DNA of 64,000 nt from Promethearchaeota archaeon (lineage in GTDB: Archaea; Asgardarchaeota; Lokiarchaeia; Sigyniarchaeales; SOKP01): assembly GCA_011364925.1 (NCBI GenBank), contig RDOA01000011.1:1-64000 (forward strand), given 5' to 3'. Under the pieces are notes generated by a model, which worked only from the letters and a program-made list of their open reading frames with translations, ran no database searches and was not told the origin of the DNA. The position numbers and the translations under genes were made by a program. Positions 18,981 through 40,399 of this stretch are shown here, piece by piece (within the stretch, counting starts at the first letter, position 1; each line of letters starts with the position of its first letter).

Positions 18981-19823
18981 TTATAATAATTTATTGATGA
19001 AATCAATACTCGTCTTAATTTCCTCATTTGATGAGAGTTCAATAATTAACGCGTCTTTATAATGATGACTTCGGATGGTATCTAGAATTGCTTTGAAATT
19101 AATTTTCCCTGAACCTAGCGAAGGATGGGTATCCGACTCAACAGTATAGTTTTCAACGAGATGCACATTTTTTATGATTTTATGAAATCGTTCCCATAAC
19201 ATATCTACATTTCCATTATTAGTGTAAAAATGACTGGTATCATATGTTAGGAACAAGTCTGGTCTCCCAATTGATTCTAAGATTTGTGCTATGTTATCTT
19301 GATCCAACATAATATGCGTGTTCTTAGTCATATTTTCTAAACAAATTGTTAAATTAAGGTTTTTTGTATAATCCAGTAATTCATTAAGCGCTCGAGACAA
19401 TTGAATCGTATTGAAAACTCTTAATGACTCTAATAAAAAATTAGCTAATCCCGGATGGATTGTTATTAAATCTACATTAATCCTCTTGCACAATTTTGCA
19501 GTTGTTTTATAAGCTTCAACTGAAGCTTGAGAAATAAGATTATTGTGAGAGCACAAGTTAACATCAATAAAAGGACCGTGAACCTGCTTTTTTAATGAAT
19601 ATGAGTTTACTAGCTCAATAAATTCTTCTCTCTTAACTTCTGAATATAAATCCTGAGGATCCACAACAATCTCAACAATTTTAATCTCATTTTCTTCAGC
19701 GAACTTAAGGCATTCCTCTGTTGCGAGGTATAACATATTAGGAATATCATCATACTTACTGCTGAGACCATAATCAATAATATTACCCAAAGAACTTATT
19801 CCTAACTCCACAATTATTCTCAC
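18981..19823 (-). CDS. Sugar phosphate isomerase/epimerase (AP-endonuclease-2 TIM barrel)
   Basis: HGPFIDVNL, TIHPG, LENM, DTSH, HLxE, DTH..LGSG, IIE. Confidence 0.85.
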   Translation of the reverse strand: MRIIVELGISSLGNIIDYGLSSKYDDIPNMLYLATEECLKFAEENEIKIVEIVVDPQDLYSEVKREEFIELVNSYSLKKQVHGPFIDVNLCSHNNLISQASVEAYKTTAKLCKRINVDLITIHPGLANFLLESLRVFNTIQLSRALNELLDYTKNLNLTICLENMTKNTHIMLDQDNIAQILESIGRPDLFLTYDTSHFYTNNGNVDMLWERFHKIIKNVHLVENYTVESDTHPSLGSGKINFKAILDTIRSHHYKDALIIELSSNEEIKTSIDFINKLL

Positions 19824-19829
19824 ACCATT

Positions 19830-20504
19830 TTATGAAGATCTTAGTCTTCTAGGATAAGAAGCAAACAAGCTGGTAAACATTTTCTCGTGTTCTTCAAGAT
19901 TTTCTTCAGGGATAGCTAACGGTTCTCCGATTTGCAATGCACCCCAATATACTTTTGCCAGCTTTTCCAGGATTACAGCAAAACGTACCACATGATCCAA
20001 AGATTTACCACATACAATAGCGCCATGATTTGCTAGAATCGCTGCATTATTTCTACCTAAGGCGTTCAGTGCGCTCACTCCCATCTCTTCCGTGTGAGCT
20101 TCAGTAATTTCAGTACATCGAATTTCACCACCAAGAAAAATCAACTGTTGTTCCATTATAATTGGAATGTTTTTTCTTAGAATTGAAAGCATAGACACAT
20201 AAGGAGAATGATTATGGATAACGCATTTAACTTTAGGTCTATCCTTATATACTGCAAGATGCATTTTAACTTCAGTAGATGGAATTTTACCCGTACCTAT
20301 TACATTCCCGCTTAAATCCATGTGTACAATCAAATCAGGAGTCAATAGATCATACTTAGTTGAAGTGGGAGTCACAAGTATTTCGTTGCTATTTACCCGA
20401 ACACTGACATTACCTTCTCCATCCTCAACCAATCCTTTAGCGTAAATTTCTTGAGCTCCTCTTACAACTATTTTTCGCAATTGTTCTAATTTATCCGTTT
20501 CCAT
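19830..20504 (-). CDS. Class II aldolase/adducin family (FucA-like)
   Basis: GNVSVR, TPT, PSTEVKMH, IHNHS, LANHG Zn ligands. Confidence 0.9.
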   Translation of the reverse strand: METDKLEQLRKIVVRGAQEIYAKGLVEDGEGNVSVRVNSNEILVTPTSTKYDLLTPDLIVHMDLSGNVIGTGKIPSTEVKMHLAVYKDRPKVKCVIHNHSPYVSMLSILRKNIPIIMEQQLIFLGGEIRCTEITEAHTEEMGVSALNALGRNNAAILANHGAIVCGKSLDHVVRFAVILEKLAKVYWGALQIGEPLAIPEENLEEHEKMFTSLFASYPRRLRSS

Positions 20505-20646
20505 ATGAATTTAAATTAAGGATTGATTAAAAACATATTTTCATTGATTTATTACGAGTAACTAAATTAAAAATTCATTTTACTCCGATTTTTTATATTC
20601 TTTTTAGAAATTATAATAATGTCATAGTTCTTAGAAACGATTTAAT

Positions 20647-21735
20647 ATGAACCGGTTTATCTTACATTGCGATTTAGATTGCTTTTTTGCAGCAGTTGAG
20701 GAACGAGATAATCCAGAATATGTAGGTAAACCTATTATTATAGGAGCAGACCCAAAGGATGGTAAAGGAAGAGGAGTGGTTAGTACTTGTAATTATGAGG
20801 CTCGAAAGTTCGGACTCCACTCAGCGATGCCTATATCCCAGGCGTATAGAAAATGTCCTCATGGTATTTACCTTCATCCTAATTTTGAAAAATATCAAAA
20901 AGCATCGAAGGAAGTAATGGAGATTGTTAATTCTTATTCAGATAAATTTCAACAGGTAAGTATCGATGAAGCATATCTTGATGTATCTGATATATGCCAA
21001 GATTTTAAAGAGGTAAGAGAATTAGCTGAAAAATTAAAAAGTGAAATACAAAACAAAATAGGTATTACGATCTCAATAGGATGTGCCCCAACTAAATCTA
21101 TTGCAAAAATCGCTTCTGATTATAATAAACCGAATGGATTTACCATCGTTGAACCAAATCAAATAAATAGTTTTTTAAGTAATTTAGATATTACCCGAAT
21201 TCCTGGAATTGGAAAAAAATCTAAACAGTACTATAACAATAAAGGAATCAAAACTATTGGTGATATTACTAATCTAACGCGCTCTCAGATGGAACATTTA
21301 TTTGGGAAAAACGGGGAATGGGTATGGAATGTTGCACATGGCTTTGATACTCGGGAAGTAAAGGAATTTAGTGGCGATAGGAAATCTATAAGTAAGGAAA
21401 GAACTTTTTATGAGGATACTGATGATCTCAATGTGATTATATCAAAGCTTGAAGATATTAATAATAGATTGCATGATATTATAGTTAAAAATAAGATATA
21501 TTATAAAACGGTAACTCTCAAGATAAGATTTAAGGGATTTTTAACGTATACTCGTTCAAAATCCTTTCCTCATCATGTTCAAGATAAAAGCCAAGCGTTA
21601 AAAGTAATTATTGAACTATTGAATCAATTTTCAAATGAAAATAAGAAAGTCAGGCTTGTTGGAATAAAGTTATCAAATTTAGAAAAAGCTCTGAATTTCT
21701 CCCAAACTACTATAATAAGTTATTTAGAAGTTTAA
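20647..21735 (+). CDS. dinB: Y-family DNA polymerase IV (DinB/Dbh)
   Basis: HCDLDCFFAAVE, CNYEARKFG, SIDEAYLD, KPNG, C-terminal PIP-like QTTIISY. Confidence 0.95.
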   Translation: MNRFILHCDLDCFFAAVEERDNPEYVGKPIIIGADPKDGKGRGVVSTCNYEARKFGLHSAMPISQAYRKCPHGIYLHPNFEKYQKASKEVMEIVNSYSDKFQQVSIDEAYLDVSDICQDFKEVRELAEKLKSEIQNKIGITISIGCAPTKSIAKIASDYNKPNGFTIVEPNQINSFLSNLDITRIPGIGKKSKQYYNNKGIKTIGDITNLTRSQMEHLFGKNGEWVWNVAHGFDTREVKEFSGDRKSISKERTFYEDTDDLNVIISKLEDINNRLHDIIVKNKIYYKTVTLKIRFKGFLTYTRSKSFPHHVQDKSQALKVIIELLNQFSNENKKVRLVGIKLSNLEKALNFSQTTIISYLEV

Positions 21736-21745
21736 ATTAAAGTAA

Positions 21746-22687
21746 TTAGCTATTCTCAAGAACGTTACTAGATTGTAATGCTTGTATTAAATCATTGTGC
21801 ATAAGTCCATTCGAGGCAATAAGACCGGGGGCAGAAACAATGCATTTTTCATCTATGTATTTAATAGATTCACCTTTTAAATCAGTTATCATGCCACCAG
21901 CTTCTCTAACCAATAAATCTCCCGGCAGAAAGTCCCAAGTATATGAATGTTGAATGTTTAAAGGTTTAACATAAATTTCAGCTGAACCATCTGCTATCAT
22001 ACACAATTTAGCCATACTATCCATCCGAATGTAACTTGAAATACCAATCGAATTAGCAAATTCCAACACCCATGGTTTATTGTAATGTAGAGAATAACAC
22101 ATGCGAAACTTCTTTATATCTTCATTACTACTTACTTTTAATTTAGTAAAGGCAAGGTCACCAAACGATACCCTCGCTCCTTGATTTTTTTCAGCTGCAA
22201 ATATAGCTAATTTCATATCTTTATAATTAGGAACACCAATAGCACATATTTTTGGTTCAAAACCAATCATAAATCCAATTCCTATAGCATATGCTAAATC
22301 TTCCTGAAAACCCTTGGTACCATCAATAGGATCGACTGTCCACTGGCGATTAGAGCTTGGACCGCGGTAATTTAGCATTTCTTCTAAATCTCCTTCAAAC
22401 TGGACCTGATTTGATTTATAACATCTCTTTATTAATTCTTCAATTTTTGGATTAAAAAAGTCGCCACTTTCCTCTTCAGCGATAATTTGGTCGTTAGGAA
22501 AATTTTTCCTAATTTCAGATATTATTAAAATCTGAGACGCAAAATCTGCTAATGTGACGGGGGAATCATCTTTCTTTATATACGATGAAGAATGTTTGAT
22601 TTTAAACCATTCTGTAATTTTGGCAGCAATTTCTACTAAATTAATGGCTAAAGAGGATTCTCTGCTATAGTCAACCATAGATATCAA
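21746..22687 (-). CDS. HAL2/MET22/SAL1-like 3'(2'),5'-bisphosphate nucleotidase (inositol monophosphatase superfamily)
   Basis: KxDxSPVTLADFASQ, IAEE, DPIDGTKGF, RMDSMAK, WD..G..LVREAGG. Confidence 0.82.
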   Translation of the reverse strand: MISMVDYSRESSLAINLVEIAAKITEWFKIKHSSSYIKKDDSPVTLADFASQILIISEIRKNFPNDQIIAEEESGDFFNPKIEELIKRCYKSNQVQFEGDLEEMLNYRGPSSNRQWTVDPIDGTKGFQEDLAYAIGIGFMIGFEPKICAIGVPNYKDMKLAIFAAEKNQGARVSFGDLAFTKLKVSSNEDIKKFRMCYSLHYNKPWVLEFANSIGISSYIRMDSMAKLCMIADGSAEIYVKPLNIQHSYTWDFLPGDLLVREAGGMITDLKGESIKYIDEKCIVSAPGLIASNGLMHNDLIQALQSSNVLENS

Positions 22688-22729
22688 CTTTTTTTTATAA
22701 AGAAACTTGGATTTATGATCATGTCAAAG

Positions 22730-24415
22730 TTAGATTTTTTTAGAATCTTTAAAAAGATCAAAAACATCCATTTCATAATCAATTGTGTCTTCAGGGAGGA
22801 GAGAAGGCTCTTTAATTAATTTCGCTAAATAATAAATTTTAGATCCCCTTTCTAAATATCGTAACACAGTGTAGGCACCTTCTAAATGACTCCCACAGCA
22901 TAAACTTCCATGGTTTGCGAGAATTACAGCATTTCTCTCTTCTAAACTTGCAAGCACATTCTCAGCTAAATCTAGACTCCCCGCTTCTCCATATTTTGCA
23001 CATTTTACTTCTCCTCCTAAGTAAGGAACAAGTTCTTCCATTACGGGAGGTAAAGTTAAATTGAGAGTGCTAAGTATTGTTGAAAATACACCATGAGAGT
23101 GGATTATCGCATTGACATCTTCACGTTCTTTATAAATGCCTAGATGGAGATTCTTTTCTACTGATGGATTTCTTTCCCCTTCAATAACTTTACCATCTAG
23201 ATTTATAATTAAAATGTCACTCGATACCATTTCTTCATAATTTACATTACTAGGCGTAATCAATACCATTTCTTCGTTCTCTCTTCTTATTCTCATGCTC
23301 ACATTTCCCGCCGATCCAATAACATGACTATCATCTAGTAATCTTTTACAAATCCTTACAATTTCTTCTTTGCATTTTTTGATTGACTCATCCAATGGCT
23401 CCTTTTTTTCTTTATATTCTTCAAAAACTTCAGGATTTAACACATGTGAAGGAATTCCTTTATTTAACCAAGTTTCAATATCAGCAAGGAGCATTTTTGA
23501 TTGTCTCTGTATAACCTCGTTTGTATTTCCACAAACATGAGGCAATACTATGACATTATCTAATTTTAAAAACTCATTATCTTCATCAATAGGTTCTAAG
23601 GGAAAGACATCTAATGCCGCTCCAGCAATATCTCTATTTTTTAGAGCTTGGAATAAGTAATCGTAGTCTACTAAGCTTGCTTTCGCAGTGTTTATTAAAA
23701 ATGCTGTTTGCTTCATCATATTTATATATTCTTCATTAATTAAATTATCATTCTCGTCAGTTGCAACAGCATGAATAGTGATAAAATCGGACTCTTTCAT
23801 TAACATATCCAAGTCTGTTTTCTCACCGTATTTTTCAACAATTTCATCTGAAACTAACGGATCGTAAATGAGTAGCTTAACTCCAAATGGCTTTAAGCGT
23901 TCAGCAACTCGATGTCCTATTTGACCAAAACCAATAATTCCAATTGTCTTATCCATTAGTTCACTCCCCATAAACCTATTATAACATTTAATCCAATCTT
24001 CGAATTCAATTATTTCAAAATCATCAGAATGCAAAAACTTATCAACTTGAGTCAAATTTCTCGCTAAAGATATTATTAATCCTATTGTTAACTCAGCAAC
24101 CGCAACAACATTCCTAAGAGGAGTATAAATAACAGGGATTTTTTTGTGTGTGGCAGCCTCTAAATTAATATTAAATGGATCGCCTCTGCAAGATCCAATC
24201 AATTTTAAATTAGTGCTTTCAAATAATTCAGCCTTTTTTAAATCATCTGCAACCGTAATAAAAATATCATAGTCTTTTAACTTTTCAATCATTTCATTAA
24301 CATCAAAATAAATAATACCAGTTTCTCTCCAGCTCTCATATGTAATATCTAATTTCGTTTCCAATTTTTCTAAAACATCATCAGATATACTTGCAGTAAT
24401 AAATGCTCTCATCAC
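22730..24415 (-). CDS. Fusion of a D-isomer 2-hydroxyacid dehydrogenase (YoaD-like) and a class II aldolase
   Basis: N-terminal CRGDP, RNxxAVAE, GFGQIG, LDVFxxEP, PHxxG; C-terminal GNVS, TPS, PSVE..LH, IHSH, NHG. Confidence 0.9.
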   Translation of the reverse strand: MMRAFITASISDDVLEKLETKLDITYESWRETGIIYFDVNEMIEKLKDYDIFITVADDLKKAELFESTNLKLIGSCRGDPFNINLEAATHKKIPVIYTPLRNVVAVAELTIGLIISLARNLTQVDKFLHSDDFEIIEFEDWIKCYNRFMGSELMDKTIGIIGFGQIGHRVAERLKPFGVKLLIYDPLVSDEIVEKYGEKTDLDMLMKESDFITIHAVATDENDNLINEEYINMMKQTAFLINTAKASLVDYDYLFQALKNRDIAGAALDVFPLEPIDEDNEFLKLDNVIVLPHVCGNTNEVIQRQSKMLLADIETWLNKGIPSHVLNPEVFEEYKEKKEPLDESIKKCKEEIVRICKRLLDDSHVIGSAGNVSMRIRRENEEMVLITPSNVNYEEMVSSDILIINLDGKVIEGERNPSVEKNLHLGIYKEREDVNAIIHSHGVFSTILSTLNLTLPPVMEELVPYLGGEVKCAKYGEAGSLDLAENVLASLEERNAVILANHGSLCCGSHLEGAYTVLRYLERGSKIYYLAKLIKEPSLLPEDTIDYEMDVFDLFKDSKKI

Positions 24416-24512
24416 TTCTCACCTCATTAAATAATATAAAGCAAATTTAGATAAAGATTAATAAAAATCAAATAATGAAATTGTGAATCAATAAAAAAAT
24501 AATTGAATTTTC

Positions 24513-24863
24513 TTAGAACATCAAGCTTTTTAACTTCATTAAATTCCGAATTTGACCTTCAACAACCTTAATTTTTCCAGAAGAATAGGCTTTTACTGCT
24601 CCAAGCTTTTTATTAAATAGTTCTAACATAATCTTTTCTGAAGAAAATTCAATTTTTACGGGAGCTTTTTCATCACTAGTATTATCCTTTACCTCAATTC
24701 CTTGATCGTTATGTACTAGAATCATTACATTTCGATTAGTATCTAAGAATGTTACCTGTATCGGTTCCTCGTAATTGGCTAATTTTTTTCTAATTTTTTC
24801 AGTATTATTATAACGGTTCTCAATTTCTTTTAAGCAAGCTTCTATACTATTAAACTCCGACAT
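24513..24863 (-). CDS. SCP2 sterol/lipid-carrier domain protein
   Basis: 116 aa; LFNKKLGAVKAYSSGKIKVVEG…LMKL is the typical SCP2 C-terminal signature. Confidence 0.78.
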   Translation of the reverse strand: MSEFNSIEACLKEIENRYNNTEKIRKKLANYEEPIQVTFLDTNRNVMILVHNDQGIEVKDNTSDEKAPVKIEFSSEKIMLELFNKKLGAVKAYSSGKIKVVEGQIRNLMKLKSLMF

Positions 24864-24951
24864 TACATCACACCCCTATAATACTAATTTAACTTTTAAA
24901 TGAATTAATTATCTTTCGTTTTTAAAATTAAATAAATTAAATAATTTAAAG

Positions 24952-26475
24952 TTATAATGTATCAACTTTATTTTTAAGGTTCTTCCATTCAATATAAACA
25001 GATTTATAAATCTCCGAAATGCTATGGTCATTTTTTATTTTCTCATAAGTAATTAGATCCTTAACCATAGGCTTGTAATCTGAATAAACATTTAACGCCT
25101 TCAAAACATTCATAGCAACACCAATAAAAGCCGATTCTTTTATTAATGGAACTAGTAATTCCGAATCTAATATATTCGCTAACAATTGGTTAAATTCTTT
25201 TGATTTAGACATTCCTCCTGCACAAAATGGTTTTGTATCGAAATCAACAAAGCTATTAAGTGCTTCATAATTTTCATATAATCCAAAAGCGATATTTTCA
25301 AGAATACTTCTCGCAAAATCCTCAATGTTCGGTAGCTCATCAGAAACCATCATTGGAGGTTGAAATGCGAATATACCTCTCTTTATTGAAGTCTGATTTT
25401 TAATATTCATATTTTCAGGTCCCAAATAAGCGTAAGTGGATAAAGCTCCTGGTGAAGATTTCTTCAAATATGTGTCCATCAGTAAATCGGGATTGTCATT
25501 TGAATTGGAGAGAAAACATTGCTTAAACCAATTATATGAAGCTCCTGTGTTTCCAGCGTGCCCTTCCAATAACCATTTTCCTTTTAGTGAATGACAAGAT
25601 GTCCAATAATTGCACGAGGCATCAATTATTGGCTCATTTAGTACAAGATCAATAGGGGCTGTTGTACCTAAACTGAATCCAATATCTCCTTGTTCAATTG
25701 CCCCCATACCTAACAATGTTGCTTGTGTATCTCCACCTGATTTTACTACGGGAATAGTACCTTGATTAAGATTAAATTTTTTAGCCATCTCAAGTTTTAA
25801 TTGACCAACTACAGTTCCAGATTCGACTATATCTGGGAAGAAATCTGGATTGAAATCAAAAGCTTGTATAATTTCACTACTCCATTCTCTCTTTTTTATA
25901 TCTAATAATTGAGATTCTGCTGCAGCAGAAAAATCACTAACATAGATTCCAGTAAGTTTGTATACCAACCAATCATCTAACGCTAGGACTTTTCCTATTT
26001 TATCATAGGTTTCTTCCTCCTCTTCTCTAAACCATAACAACCTTGCTAGGCAAAATAAAAAAGAAGGACAATGACCAGTTATATCAAACAGATCTCGCTC
26101 TATAAATTCGTTCTCTATTAAATACGCGGAATCTATTCCACGAATATCTATATTTGGGCCCCCGTAAAGTACTTTTCCCTTCTTGTCTAAAAATACTGAC
26201 GCCATCCTTTGAGCGCAAGTTGATATTCCTATAACTTTGGAATTTTGATTCGTAATTTTAGAAATTGCTTGGTTTACTCCTAAAATTAATTTGTTCCAAA
26301 GATCCTCAATGTCAAATCTTTTAGCAAAACCATCTAGATCTTCGTTAAAGATTTTAATAGTTTGACTGTTGGTATGAATTAATTTTAAATCTTCTGAAAC
26401 TAAACCAACTTTCACGGAATTAGATGAAACATCGATTACGATGATAAAATTTCCATTATTTTCCATAGTTTTCAC
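24952..26475 (-). CDS. FGGY-family carbohydrate kinase (YoaC/LsrK-like)
   Basis: IDxSSNSVK, AQR, PNIDIRG, RLLWFRE, GGDTQ, LGTT, GGMSKS. Confidence 0.88.
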   Translation of the reverse strand: MKTMENNGNFIIVIDVSSNSVKVGLVSEDLKLIHTNSQTIKIFNEDLDGFAKRFDIEDLWNKLILGVNQAISKITNQNSKVIGISTCAQRMASVFLDKKGKVLYGGPNIDIRGIDSAYLIENEFIERDLFDITGHCPSFLFCLARLLWFREEEEETYDKIGKVLALDDWLVYKLTGIYVSDFSAAAESQLLDIKKREWSSEIIQAFDFNPDFFPDIVESGTVVGQLKLEMAKKFNLNQGTIPVVKSGGDTQATLLGMGAIEQGDIGFSLGTTAPIDLVLNEPIIDASCNYWTSCHSLKGKWLLEGHAGNTGASYNWFKQCFLSNSNDNPDLLMDTYLKKSSPGALSTYAYLGPENMNIKNQTSIKRGIFAFQPPMMVSDELPNIEDFARSILENIAFGLYENYEALNSFVDFDTKPFCAGGMSKSKEFNQLLANILDSELLVPLIKESAFIGVAMNVLKALNVYSDYKPMVKDLITYEKIKNDHSISEIYKSVYIEWKNLKNKVDTL

Positions 26476-38860: not shown

Positions 38861-40399
38861 TTATTCAGAATCTTTACTTTGAAGCGTCTCAATAAAAGTT
38901 TTATGAAAATTCTTTTCATTTAGGATTGTATATAACTCATTCGATAAATTAAATACTTTATTATAAAAATTCTGCCGATTTGCGTCAGGAATCCATTTTT
39001 TATCTATCTTACATATGTTTTCAGCAGCAGAAACAACATCTGAAAACAAACCTGCACCAGCAGCGGCTAAAATTGCAGCACCTAAAGAAGTGGCTTCCTC
39101 AATCACATTTCTGACACATGTCATTCCTAAAACATCGGAATAGATTTGATTCCATAAATCTGATCGCGACCCTCCTCCAGTAAGTTTTAATTCTTTTGGA
39201 TCAAGTCCTAATTCTCTAAAAATTTCTATGTTTTTCTTCACTTCAAATGCGACACCCTCTAAAATCGATCGGATAATATCTCTTCTTTTATGACCCAAAG
39301 ATAATCCGTAGATCAAACCTCTCGCATATGGGTTCCAATATGGTGCTCCCGCTCCAACTAAATGAGGAATCGATAGTAGCATGTTAGCGCCCATAGGTGA
39401 CTTCTCAGCTTCCTCTGTCATTATTTCATAAGGATCTACATTTTGTTCAGTGGCAGATCTGCATTCTTCATTTCCTAATTCATCCCTAAACCATCTTAGA
39501 AAAGCACCAGTCGTGAAGATACTTGCCTCTTGAACCCAAGCACCAGGAATTGCGTGGCAACTGCATAAAACTCGTTTACTAGGGTCAAAATTCGGTTTTT
39601 CTAAATAAGCTAACATGAAACTTCCAGTTCCAGTAGTCAACTTTACATTTCCGGGTGAGACAACTCCTACTCCCAATGCCGCCGATTGCTGGTCTCCTGC
39701 TCCTGAAACAACCATAGTTTTTTTATCAAATAGAATTTCATCATTATTAATTTCCCCTATTTCTACTCCACTTTCAATCGCTTCTGGCATCTTATCAAGA
39801 TCTAGTTCTAATTCTGAAGCAATGTCTTCCGAATATTTGAAATTGTTAATGTCGAATAACATAGTTCTTGAGGCATTAGAATGGTCGGTGTAATATTTCC
39901 CAGTTAGCTTATAAATAATAAAATCTGCTACCAAAAGGAATTTATATGCTTTTTGATAAATTTCTGGTTTTTTGTCTTTAAACCAAAGAATTTTTGTTGC
40001 CGAAAAATACGGATCTATCGTTAACCCTGTAGTTCGATATATTTTGTCAATGCCAACTTTTTTTTTTATAAATTCGACTTGATCGGTTGTACGTCGGTCC
40101 TGCCAAACTATTGCGTTATGCAATGGATTACCGTCCTTATCTACGGGTACAATAGTTTCTCTTTGGTTAGTTACAGATAAACTTACTATTTGTGATTTAT
40201 CAATTCCACTCTTTTTTAGCGCACCCTCAGTGGTTTTTTTAATGGACTCCCACCAAGAATTCGCATTCTGCTCTACAAAAGAAGGAGATGGATAATAACT
40301 TTCCCACTCTTGATAATCACTTGATATAATCGAGCCAGCTAAATCAAAAATATAAGTCCTACAACCAGTAGTTCCAAGGTCAAGTGCGGCTATAAACAT
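38861..40399 (-). CDS. FGGY carbohydrate kinase (xylulokinase/glycerol kinase-like)
   Basis: DLGTTGCR, TNQRET, WQDRRT, ASRTMLF, GDQQ, GAGAPYWNP, GGGSRS. Confidence 0.92.
   Translation of the reverse strand: MFIAALDLGTTGCRTYIFDLAGSIISSDYQEWESYYPSPSFVEQNANSWWESIKKTTEGALKKSGIDKSQIVSLSVTNQRETIVPVDKDGNPLHNAIVWQDRRTTDQVEFIKKKVGIDKIYRTTGLTIDPYFSATKILWFKDKKPEIYQKAYKFLLVADFIIYKLTGKYYTDHSNASRTMLFDINNFKYSEDIASELELDLDKMPEAIESGVEIGEINNDEILFDKKTMVVSGAGDQQSAALGVGVVSPGNVKLTTGTGSFMLAYLEKPNFDPSKRVLCSCHAIPGAWVQEASIFTTGAFLRWFRDELGNEECRSATEQNVDPYEIMTEEAEKSPMGANMLLSIPHLVGAGAPYWNPYARGLIYGLSLGHKRRDIIRSILEGVAFEVKKNIEIFRELGLDPKELKLTGGGSRSDLWNQIYSDVLGMTCVRNVIEEATSLGAAILAAAGAGLFSDVVSAAENICKIDKKWIPDANRQNFYNKVFNLSNELYTILNEKNFHKTFIETLQSKDSE

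Follow-up and report, generated by a model that had tools for sequence, protein, structure and literature searches.

A 64,000-nt stretch of an Asgard archaeal genome (contig RDOA01000011.1, positions 1 to 64,000; ~32% G+C; hereafter the window) contains six minus-strand genes, which raise the question of whether they encode one pathway and on what substrate it would act. Their products are an FGGY-family kinase, an SCP2-fold protein, a fusion of a D-2-hydroxyacid dehydrogenase with a class II aldolase, a HAL2-like phosphatase, a second class II aldolase (ALD2) and a triosephosphate isomerase (TIM) barrel protein. The original prediction regarded them as a co-oriented set serving a single route. 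The six open reading frames (ORFs), their coordinates and their domains were confirmed; however, the ORF listing and the NCBIfam matches revealed a plus-strand gene for DNA polymerase IV (dinB) between the phosphatase and ALD2, which breaks the run. The conserved module comprises three genes with four parts: the kinase, the SCP2 protein and the dehydrogenase::aldolase fusion. The phosphatase, dinB, ALD2 and the TIM barrel are neighbours outside this module.

With the fusion protein as query, ~74 of 151 Asgard genomes gave an orthologue-level match (rows with E <= 1e-74). Twenty-eight loci were fetched and mapped, 29 counting the window. Full-length fused orthologues were found in the window's family and in two other Asgard families. 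Elsewhere the two halves are mostly encoded by separate genes on the same strand, 1.5-2.5 kb apart, with identities of ~45% for the dehydrogenase and ~40-47% for the aldolase, and the gene between them encodes an FGGY kinase. The usual Asgard gene order is SCP2-dehydrogenase-kinase-aldolase, and an SCP2 gene is present at 21 of the 29 loci. The next gene in 14 of the 22 unfused Asgard loci encodes an aldehyde:ferredoxin oxidoreductase (AOR; Pfam AFOR_N and AFOR_C), and AOR is also adjacent in six bacterial loci, Anaerolineae among them. An aldehyde-handling enzyme is thus a frequent partner of the module.

The bacterial counterparts were recovered by an exhaustive HMMER search seeded with the kinase. 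It returned single chains of 1281-1481 aa with FGGY, 2-Hacid_dh, SCP2 and Aldolase_II domains (Pfam), some of them with source names of Actinomycetota and Syntrophaceae/Smithellaceae, and also partial fusions: FGGY-dehydrogenase (888 aa), FGGY-dehydrogenase-SCP2 and FGGY-aldolase (746 aa). Species-representative genomes were scanned with an alignment of seven four-domain proteins, giving 346 relatives, and 80 loci were fetched. A clustered fusion ORF, mostly of 1250-1540 aa, was present in 73 of these. The carriers include Anaerolineae (among them the cultured Bellilinea caldifistulae), other Chloroflexota, Myxococcota, Desulfobacterota, Bacillota, Spirochaetota, Planctomycetota, Actinomycetota, Ca. 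Uabimicrobium, Thermoleophilia, Halioglobus and Margulisiibacteriota, so that the four parts form one polypeptide of ~1,300 aa in at least ten bacterial phyla. Because kinase, dehydrogenase, SCP2 and aldolase are fused in these bacteria, we conclude that they belong together. Their joint conservation (28 Asgard loci, 73 bacterial single-ORF fusions) is far beyond chance. The conserved, uncharacterised kinase/dehydrogenase/aldolase route that had been proposed does therefore exist, in Asgard archaea and in bacteria. Joint conservation of all six genes was not borne out by co-occurrence among the 151 Asgard genomes: the kinase, SCP2 and fusion genes co-occur, and the other three are not tied to them. 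A protein-cluster search with a fusion homologue returned its own clusters and generic dehydrogenases, and nothing else.

Orthology between the archaeal and bacterial proteins was assessed by reciprocal tblastn. A bacterial kinase domain matched the window kinase at 220 bits and the paralogues in the same genome at 162 bits; a bacterial dehydrogenase domain matched the window gene at 222 bits and the paralogues at 128 bits. The bacterial aldolase domain could not be assigned by BLAST to one or the other of the two window aldolases as its orthologue. In the kinase tree, 28 Asgard module kinases (the window's included) and 26 bacterial ones formed one group (SH-aLRT 96), with the Asgard and bacterial members on opposite sides of a supported branch, and six further FGGY kinases encoded in this genome fell apart from this group. 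The tree was a quick IQ-TREE reconstruction with several long-branched or composition-skewed rows and is supportive rather than final. Judged by these comparisons, the window kinase is orthologous to the kinase domain at the N-terminus of the four-domain proteins from bacteria. Another FGGY kinase gene of the window (38861-40399; FGGY_N 243 bits) lies outside the module clade.

No module enzyme reaches the curated cut-off of an NCBIfam equivalog model for a characterised fucose, xylulose, autoinducer-2 (AI-2) or tetronate enzyme. The kinase scored 195 vs a cut-off of 380 bits for XylB, 193 vs 528 for LsrK and 124 vs 470.9 for FucK (TIGR02628), and its closest solved structure is LsrK (5ya0, E 8e-34). 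With all NCBIfam scores below cut-off, the best matches are not characterised fuculose or xylulose enzymes, an outcome that would have spoken against the original prediction. The sequence motifs quoted in the original prediction were found as well: PNIDIRG in the kinase, and YESWRETG, CRGDP, TPLRNVVAVAE and YNRFMGSEL in the dehydrogenase. The annotations "AI-2 kinase", "phosphoglycerate dehydrogenase" and "ribulose-5-phosphate epimerase" that module proteins carry are probably all wrong. A literature search on the domain combination and on Rv0727c-Rv0729 (serA2/fucA/xylB) did not reveal a functional study, so that for a module spanning most Asgard lineages and many bacterial phyla no paper giving a function was found.

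The dehydrogenase domain (PF02826, 176 bits; PF00389, 44.5 bits) consists of an NAD-binding Rossmann domain and a catalytic domain. Its closest solved structures are phosphoglycerate dehydrogenase (PGDH) of Pyrococcus horikoshii (1wwk, 4e-49) and then Pyrococcus glyoxylate reductases; against the corresponding NCBIfam models it scored 212 vs 454 and 211 vs 455 bits. The glycine-rich loop is followed by "YDP", which is of the NAD type and, together with what is known of the Rossmann fold, makes the enzyme probably NAD-dependent. The sequence INTAKASLVD of the window protein aligns to INTSRGPVVD, placing Lys at the position of the family's catalytic Arg; His and Glu are kept, and the Arg-Glu-His triad of D-2-hydroxyacid dehydrogenases is thus incomplete. 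Across 128 orthologues the Asgard proteins have Arg in 25 cases, Lys in 18 and Ser in 5, all 18 Lys variants belonging to the window's own family. The orthologues also have a (C/T)R(G/N/D)xP...N(I/V) loop in place of the usual GxGxDN(I/V)D. With the Arg position varying between R, K and S and the special loop kept, the enzyme does not look like a standard 2-oxoacid dehydrogenase. Such variation would be surprising in an essential carboxylate clamp, and we therefore favour a phosphorylated polyol over a 2-hydroxyacid as the likely substrate.

The fused aldolase domain has 6btd, which we take to be the DrdA aldolase, as its closest solved structure (E 1e-43). Both window aldolases keep the equivalents of the FucA zinc ligands H92, H94 and H155 and of Glu73, and both have Glu at the position of FucA Tyr113. 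The retained zinc ligands and Glu73, and the proximity to 6btd, identify the fused domain as of genuine aldolase type as far as sequence can tell. Model scores were 184 vs 264 bits for NF005302 (FucA), 101 vs 400 for TIGR01086 (FucA) and 105 vs 250 for OtnC; ALD2 scored 101 vs 250 for OtnC and 145 bits with the FucA-type model. The two aldolases share ~31-37% identity, as estimated from cross-matches of the fused domain on ALD2 orthologues.

The matches to OtnC (1e-29 to 1e-30 for both aldolases) bring in a tetronate-type route for acid sugars, in which the dehydrogenase would oxidise a sugar acid, the kinase would phosphorylate it and the aldolase-fold domain would act as an OtnC-like beta-keto-acid decarboxylase, giving dihydroxyacetone phosphate (DHAP) or a pentulose phosphate and CO2. 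A 2-hydroxyacid dehydrogenase suits an acid substrate, and the same three-step logic of dehydrogenase, kinase and class-II-aldolase-fold enzyme leads to DHAP in LtnD/DenD-OtnI-OtnK-OtnC and is repeated in Ltn3D/3OtnK/3OtnC (PMC12994016). The module differs from these systems, which end in a decarboxylation, in that its kinase and dehydrogenase are of other families and that its scores are far below the cut-offs, OtnC being matched more weakly than the FucA-type models by either aldolase. The tetronate-pathway kinases are DUF1537 proteins rather than FGGY kinases, and Ltn3D is a short-chain dehydrogenase/reductase (SDR). The TIM barrel scored 25 vs 325 bits for OtnI and lies outside the module. 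Finally, decarboxylation leaves no aldehyde and so does not explain the recurrent AOR and aldo-keto reductase partners; these point to an aldehyde product and disfavour a decarboxylase. We consider the tetronate-type route very unlikely.

The fourth part, the SCP2 protein, gave an AlphaFold model of pLDDT 87.7. The Foldseek matches listed at E<=1e-3 were all of the SCP2 type (alkylsulfatase C-terminal domain, Thermus SCP2, AF1534, human SCP2 and UbiJ; best E 6e-7). The window protein thus has, according to the model, a lipid-carrier fold, and lipid binding is predicted. At three other Asgard loci the SCP2 protein is longer, 267-283 aa, and carries a pair of hydrophobic segments at its N-terminus and an extended charged linker (L029:9216-10019, L158:10407-11258 and L159:10268-11083). 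The predicted transmembrane segments suggest that these longer proteins are tethered to the membrane. The original prediction had named lipid scavenging as an alternative because of SCP2, and this is now the better supported of its two proposals, as the module has SCP2 as a constant component, present in the bacterial proteins as a fused domain.

These observations could be explained if the module cut a three-carbon sugar phosphate from the sugar-alcohol end of a hydrophobic molecule, which is probably the case. We put at about even the chance that the kinase, SCP2 and dehydrogenase::aldolase constitute one catabolic unit, a polyol-entry version of the DHAP shunt. The hydrophobic part of the substrate would be held by SCP2, and the FGGY kinase would phosphorylate the terminal primary hydroxyl of a polyol tail, R-CHOH-CHOH-CHOH-CH2OH. 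The neighbouring C2 hydroxyl would be oxidised by the NAD-dependent dehydrogenase to a ketose-1-phosphate-like end, on which the zinc aldolase could act, releasing DHAP and an aldehyde three carbons shorter. The aldehyde would then undergo oxidation or reduction; the adjacent tungsten-type AOR would be responsible in most other Asgard lineages. No AOR gene lies beside the module in the window's genome, which has ~15 AOR paralogues elsewhere; in this organism one of these remote paralogues or an aldo-keto reductase might take the last step. In this scheme the sequence of steps is an inference, as are the identity of the substrate and its hydrophobic character. Should a lipid-linked polyol prove to be the substrate, the module would give anaerobes a novel means of using membrane lipids as food.

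One specific candidate for such a substrate came from three bacterial loci in deltaproteobacterial or Thermodesulfobacteriota metagenome-assembled genomes, where the fusion gene lies within hopanoid clusters (L109:544-16512, L107:12062-19990 and L118:1-11998). The clusters encode squalene-hopene cyclase (775 vs 431 bits), HpnB (389 vs 379), HpnA (446 vs 368) and an HpnG match below its cut-off (170 vs 187), along with a squalene synthase-like gene, an HpnJ-like radical S-adenosylmethionine (SAM) gene and farnesyl diphosphate synthase. Hopanoid (bacteriohopanetetrol) side chains end in a tetrol, as the kinase-dehydrogenase-aldolase sequence would need. In bacteriohopanetetrol, phosphorylation would take place at C35 and oxidation at C34, and cleavage between C33 and C32 would yield DHAP and a C32 hopanoid aldehyde, which AOR would convert to C32 hopanoic acid. 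The same C32 carbon skeleton is obtained by chemical periodate (Rohmer) cleavage (PMC12583986). If true, Asgard archaea and many sediment bacteria that make no hopanoids would harvest three carbons from the membrane lipids of others under anoxic conditions; this would give a common geolipid an enzymatic origin and might explain the shortening of hopanoid side chains in sediments. That the module shortens the polyol side chain in bacteriohopanepolyols, or in some other tetrol-ended lipid, nevertheless appears to us quite improbable. No more than 11 of 50 bacterial carriers have squalene-hopene cyclase, and the window's genome has none, so hopanoids cannot be the endogenous substrate in most carriers, and for an archaeon without the cyclase any use of hopanoids would be scavenging. 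In one of the three clusters (L109) a 338-aa FGGY fragment lies just upstream of the full fusion gene.

Further points, like the rarity of the cyclase, weigh against removal of a three-carbon unit from a lipid-linked polyol. The SCP2 protein of the window is soluble and lacks the N-terminal hydrophobic segments, and its role could be structural or one of channelling. At the window locus the module has neither a lipid gene nor a transporter or AOR gene next to it. Across loci the neighbours are heterogeneous (peptidases, an aminotransferase, hydrogenase). The carboxylate-binding Arg is kept in 80 of 80 bacterial dehydrogenase orthologues, and oxidation of a non-acid polyol phosphate is not known to us from any D-2-hydroxyacid dehydrogenase.

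An alternative is a route for soluble sugars, similar to those for fucose, rhamnose or pentuloses. The kinase would then make a ketose-1-phosphate from a free ketose, and the aldolase would split it into DHAP and a 2-hydroxyaldehyde (glycolaldehyde, lactaldehyde or glyceraldehyde). AOR would oxidise this to a 2-hydroxyacid, from which the dehydrogenase would produce a 2-oxoacid (glyoxylate, pyruvate or hydroxypyruvate), SCP2 being an accessory. Such chemistry is textbook for each of the families, the nearest solved relatives of the dehydrogenase are PGDH and glyoxylate reductases, and the adjacency of AOR in 14 of 22 unfused Asgard and in six bacterial loci fits, as does the retained Arg of the bacterial enzymes; genes for a major facilitator superfamily (MFS) transporter and a GntR/UTRA regulator flank the Anaerolineae loci. 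On the other hand, the catalytic Arg is replaced by Lys in the window's family and by Ser in five other Asgard lineages. The fused protein would have to perform steps 1, 2 and 4 and leave step 3 to a separate enzyme that the locus often lacks. Neither a sugar isomerase nor a sugar transporter of the ATP-binding cassette or phosphotransferase type is conserved beside the module, and SCP2, a nearly constant component that is in many cases fused or anchored in the membrane, is left without a role. Fucose and rhamnose would moreover lead through L-lactaldehyde to L-lactate, which is no substrate for a D-specific family. On balance the soluble-sugar route seems unlikely to us, and polyol entry with a carrier-bound substrate remains the reading that we prefer.

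The polyol-entry scheme resembles several established systems in part. L-fucose and L-rhamnose are catabolised by FucK-FucA-FucO/AldA and by RhaB-RhaD, and Bacillus RhaEW is an aldolase-dehydrogenase fusion. Like these, the module combines an FGGY kinase with a class II aldolase predicted to yield DHAP and an aldehyde for a dedicated oxidoreductase, and its fusion recalls RhaEW. It differs in having no associated isomerase (none of the FucI/RhaA aldose-ketose type was seen among the conserved neighbours at the 28 Asgard and 80 bacterial loci), in leaving the FucK, FucA and RhaB thresholds unreached, in using a dehydrogenase of the 2-hydroxyacid family rather than an SDR or iron-dependent alcohol dehydrogenase, in having Glu at the Tyr113 position and in including SCP2. 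In the erythritol pathway of Brucella the FGGY kinase EryA acts first and is followed by EryB, an FAD-dependent enzyme of the glycerol-3-phosphate dehydrogenase type. The proposed order of phosphorylation of a polyol and oxidation to a keto-sugar phosphate is the same there; however, the product of the erythritol pathway is isomerised and not aldol-cleaved, and no lipid carrier is involved. UbiJ and UbiT are SCP2 accessory proteins of ubiquinone biosynthesis. They (6h6o, 6h6p) offer a parallel of a small SCP2 protein serving soluble enzymes on a hydrophobic substrate, and UbiJ is among the structural matches, but the sequence relationship is limited to the fold and the enzymes served differ. 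The proposed end reaction is that of the DHAP shunt of 5-deoxyribose salvage (DrdK-DrdI-DrdA; MtnK or MtnP, MtnA, Ald2; PMC6079011, where 6btd is also listed): there a zinc aldolase of the FucA fold acts on a ketose-1-phosphate-like compound whose tail is unusual, and forms DHAP and an aldehyde. The module departs from it in entering via an FGGY kinase and a dehydrogenase instead of an MtnK-type kinase and an MtnA-type isomerase, no MtnA-like gene being present at the examined Asgard and bacterial module loci, and in having a fixed SCP2 carrier, often followed by AOR.

Other genes accompany the module less regularly. Occasional neighbours in Asgard archaea are an aldo-keto reductase (5 loci), an M20 peptidase (4 loci) and a match to the NiFe hydrogenase large subunit (5 loci); bacterial neighbours, which hint at a hydrophobic substrate, include acyl-CoA ligases of the long-chain or steroid type and a PigE-like class III aminotransferase, besides TetR regulators, an SDR and an alpha/beta hydrolase. 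A four-subunit NiFe hydrogenase (iron-sulfur, FAD/NAD, small and large subunits) adjoins the module at L022:1999-6058 and L023:12103-16118, and a large-subunit match was seen at L161:3936-5195. The hydrogenase may serve as electron acceptor for AOR or for the dehydrogenase. The M20 peptidase genes beside the Asgard module (e.g. L024:5803-7107 and L162:11335-12615), the M28-like peptidase genes at L141:5005-6213 and eight other bacterial loci, and the class III aminotransferase, MFS transporter and GntR/UTRA regulator genes which recur at Anaerolineae loci are accounted for by none of the models. Outside the window, contig C21 of the same genome has a divergent class II aldolase-like gene directly beside an AOR gene (C21:18831-21213), and also holds an FGGY kinase and a 2-hydroxyacid dehydrogenase; this set may represent a paralogous aldehyde-producing route.

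The features of the locus are listed in the Table.

Table. Genes and domains of the module and of the adjoining block in the window; paired scores are those obtained vs cut-off.
Feature	Length (aa)	Position	Strand	Basis
TIM barrel, AP_endonuc_2	280	18981-19823	-	Pfam, 120 bits
Second class II aldolase (ALD2)	224	19830-20504	-	Pfam Aldolase_II, 160 bits
DNA polymerase IV (dinB)	362	20647-21735	+	NF002677, 370 vs 256 bits; Pfam IMS, 173 bits
HAL2/SAL1-like IMPase-family phosphatase	313	21746-22687	-	Pfam; solved-structure matches
2-Hacid_dh::Aldolase_II fusion	561	22730-24415	-	Pfam
Fusion, class II aldolase domain (FucA/DrdA-type)	aa 340-561	22730-23398	-	Pfam Aldolase_II, 155 bits
Fusion, D-2-hydroxyacid dehydrogenase domain	aa 1-335	23411-24415	-	Pfam 2-Hacid_dh_C, 176 bits
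SCP2-fold protein	116	24513-24863	-	Pfam SCP2, 30 vs 21.3 bits
FGGY-family kinase	507	24952-26475	-	Pfam FGGY_N, 154 bits; FGGY_C, 47 bits

The phosphatase, ALD2 and the TIM barrel are the other members of the single six-gene pathway that the original prediction proposed for a sulfur-containing or SAM-derived sugar, related to the Bacillus subtilis S-box operon yoaDC, in which the phosphatase and the ALD2-TIM barrel pair would be pathway steps. Besides the quoted motifs, two facts are in line with this: the phosphatase gene follows the end of the fusion gene by 42 nt on the same strand, and 6btd, the closest structure of the fused aldolase, is from the paper on salvage of 5-deoxyribose, a radical-SAM by-product (PMC6079011). 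The distribution of the genes tells otherwise. In the 151 Asgard genomes the phosphatase has orthologues in the window's family only (17 of 25 genomes), and TIM barrel orthologues occur in 22 of these 25 and almost nowhere else. The ALD2-TIM barrel pair is present in eight genomes of 92-100% completeness (G008, G077, G099, G117, G019, G030, G135 and G141) in which the fusion query matched only distant paralogues, and the block is found in G008, G099, G117, G135 and G141 where the module was not. Conversely, the related genus g4 has the module, but its TIM barrel gene is on another contig with no ALD2 beside it, and no phosphatase was found there. As the phosphatase, ALD2 and the TIM barrel are confined to one family, including genomes where the module was not found, the six genes do not constitute one pathway, and the tempting six-gene operon annotation is corrected.

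The link to sulfur fares no better. It rested on the HAL2-like phosphatase, which is only a neighbour, and the argument is therefore unsupported. The closest solved structures of the phosphatase are 3'-phosphoadenosine 5'-phosphate (PAP) phosphatases, which are housekeeping enzymes (Entamoeba 4hxv, 2e-38; yeast HAL2, 2e-28; SAL1, 2e-23); it scored 149 vs 267 bits for TIGR01330, and its alignment shows DPIDGT and WD motifs. An S-box riboswitch is not expected in an archaeon, and Rfam gave no hit in the 64-kb window at gathering thresholds, the SAM (S-box) riboswitch included. The likeness to YoaC and YoaD is putative, and the one paper found that names both proteins offers a guess at their function, not an established one (PMC2885750). 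With the opposite-strand dinB also splitting the set, we hold a six-gene sulfur or SAM-sugar pathway to be highly improbable.

Two general scans of the window were also made. A tRNA scan found none, and promoter and terminator counts were near the shuffled expectation, with bacterial models that are ill-suited to an archaeon. The phosphatase has a patchy, eukaryote-like distribution, with eukaryotic proteins as its nearest solved relatives and a single Asgard family as its range among the 151 genomes searched.

The TIM barrel is xylose-isomerase-like and has as its closest solved structure MJ1311 (3wqo, 6e-15), for which a literature search revealed no functional study. It scored 51 vs 105 bits for CbiR and 48 vs 305 for FrlC. 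Endonuclease IV (Nfo) was considered and rejected: the TIM barrel reached 43-44 vs 129.65 bits, and the true Nfo (292 bits) is encoded on contig C91.

The ALD2 and TIM barrel genes are separated by 6 nt in the window. Of 29 TIM barrel loci fetched, 23 were from the window's family, and ALD2 was directly adjacent in 20 of these, usually divergent from dinB, which is conserved beside the pair in relatives. In one relative (L055) the genes for the phosphatase, ALD2 and the TIM barrel are co-oriented and adjacent, without dinB between them. The three may therefore form a second small sugar-phosphate unit.

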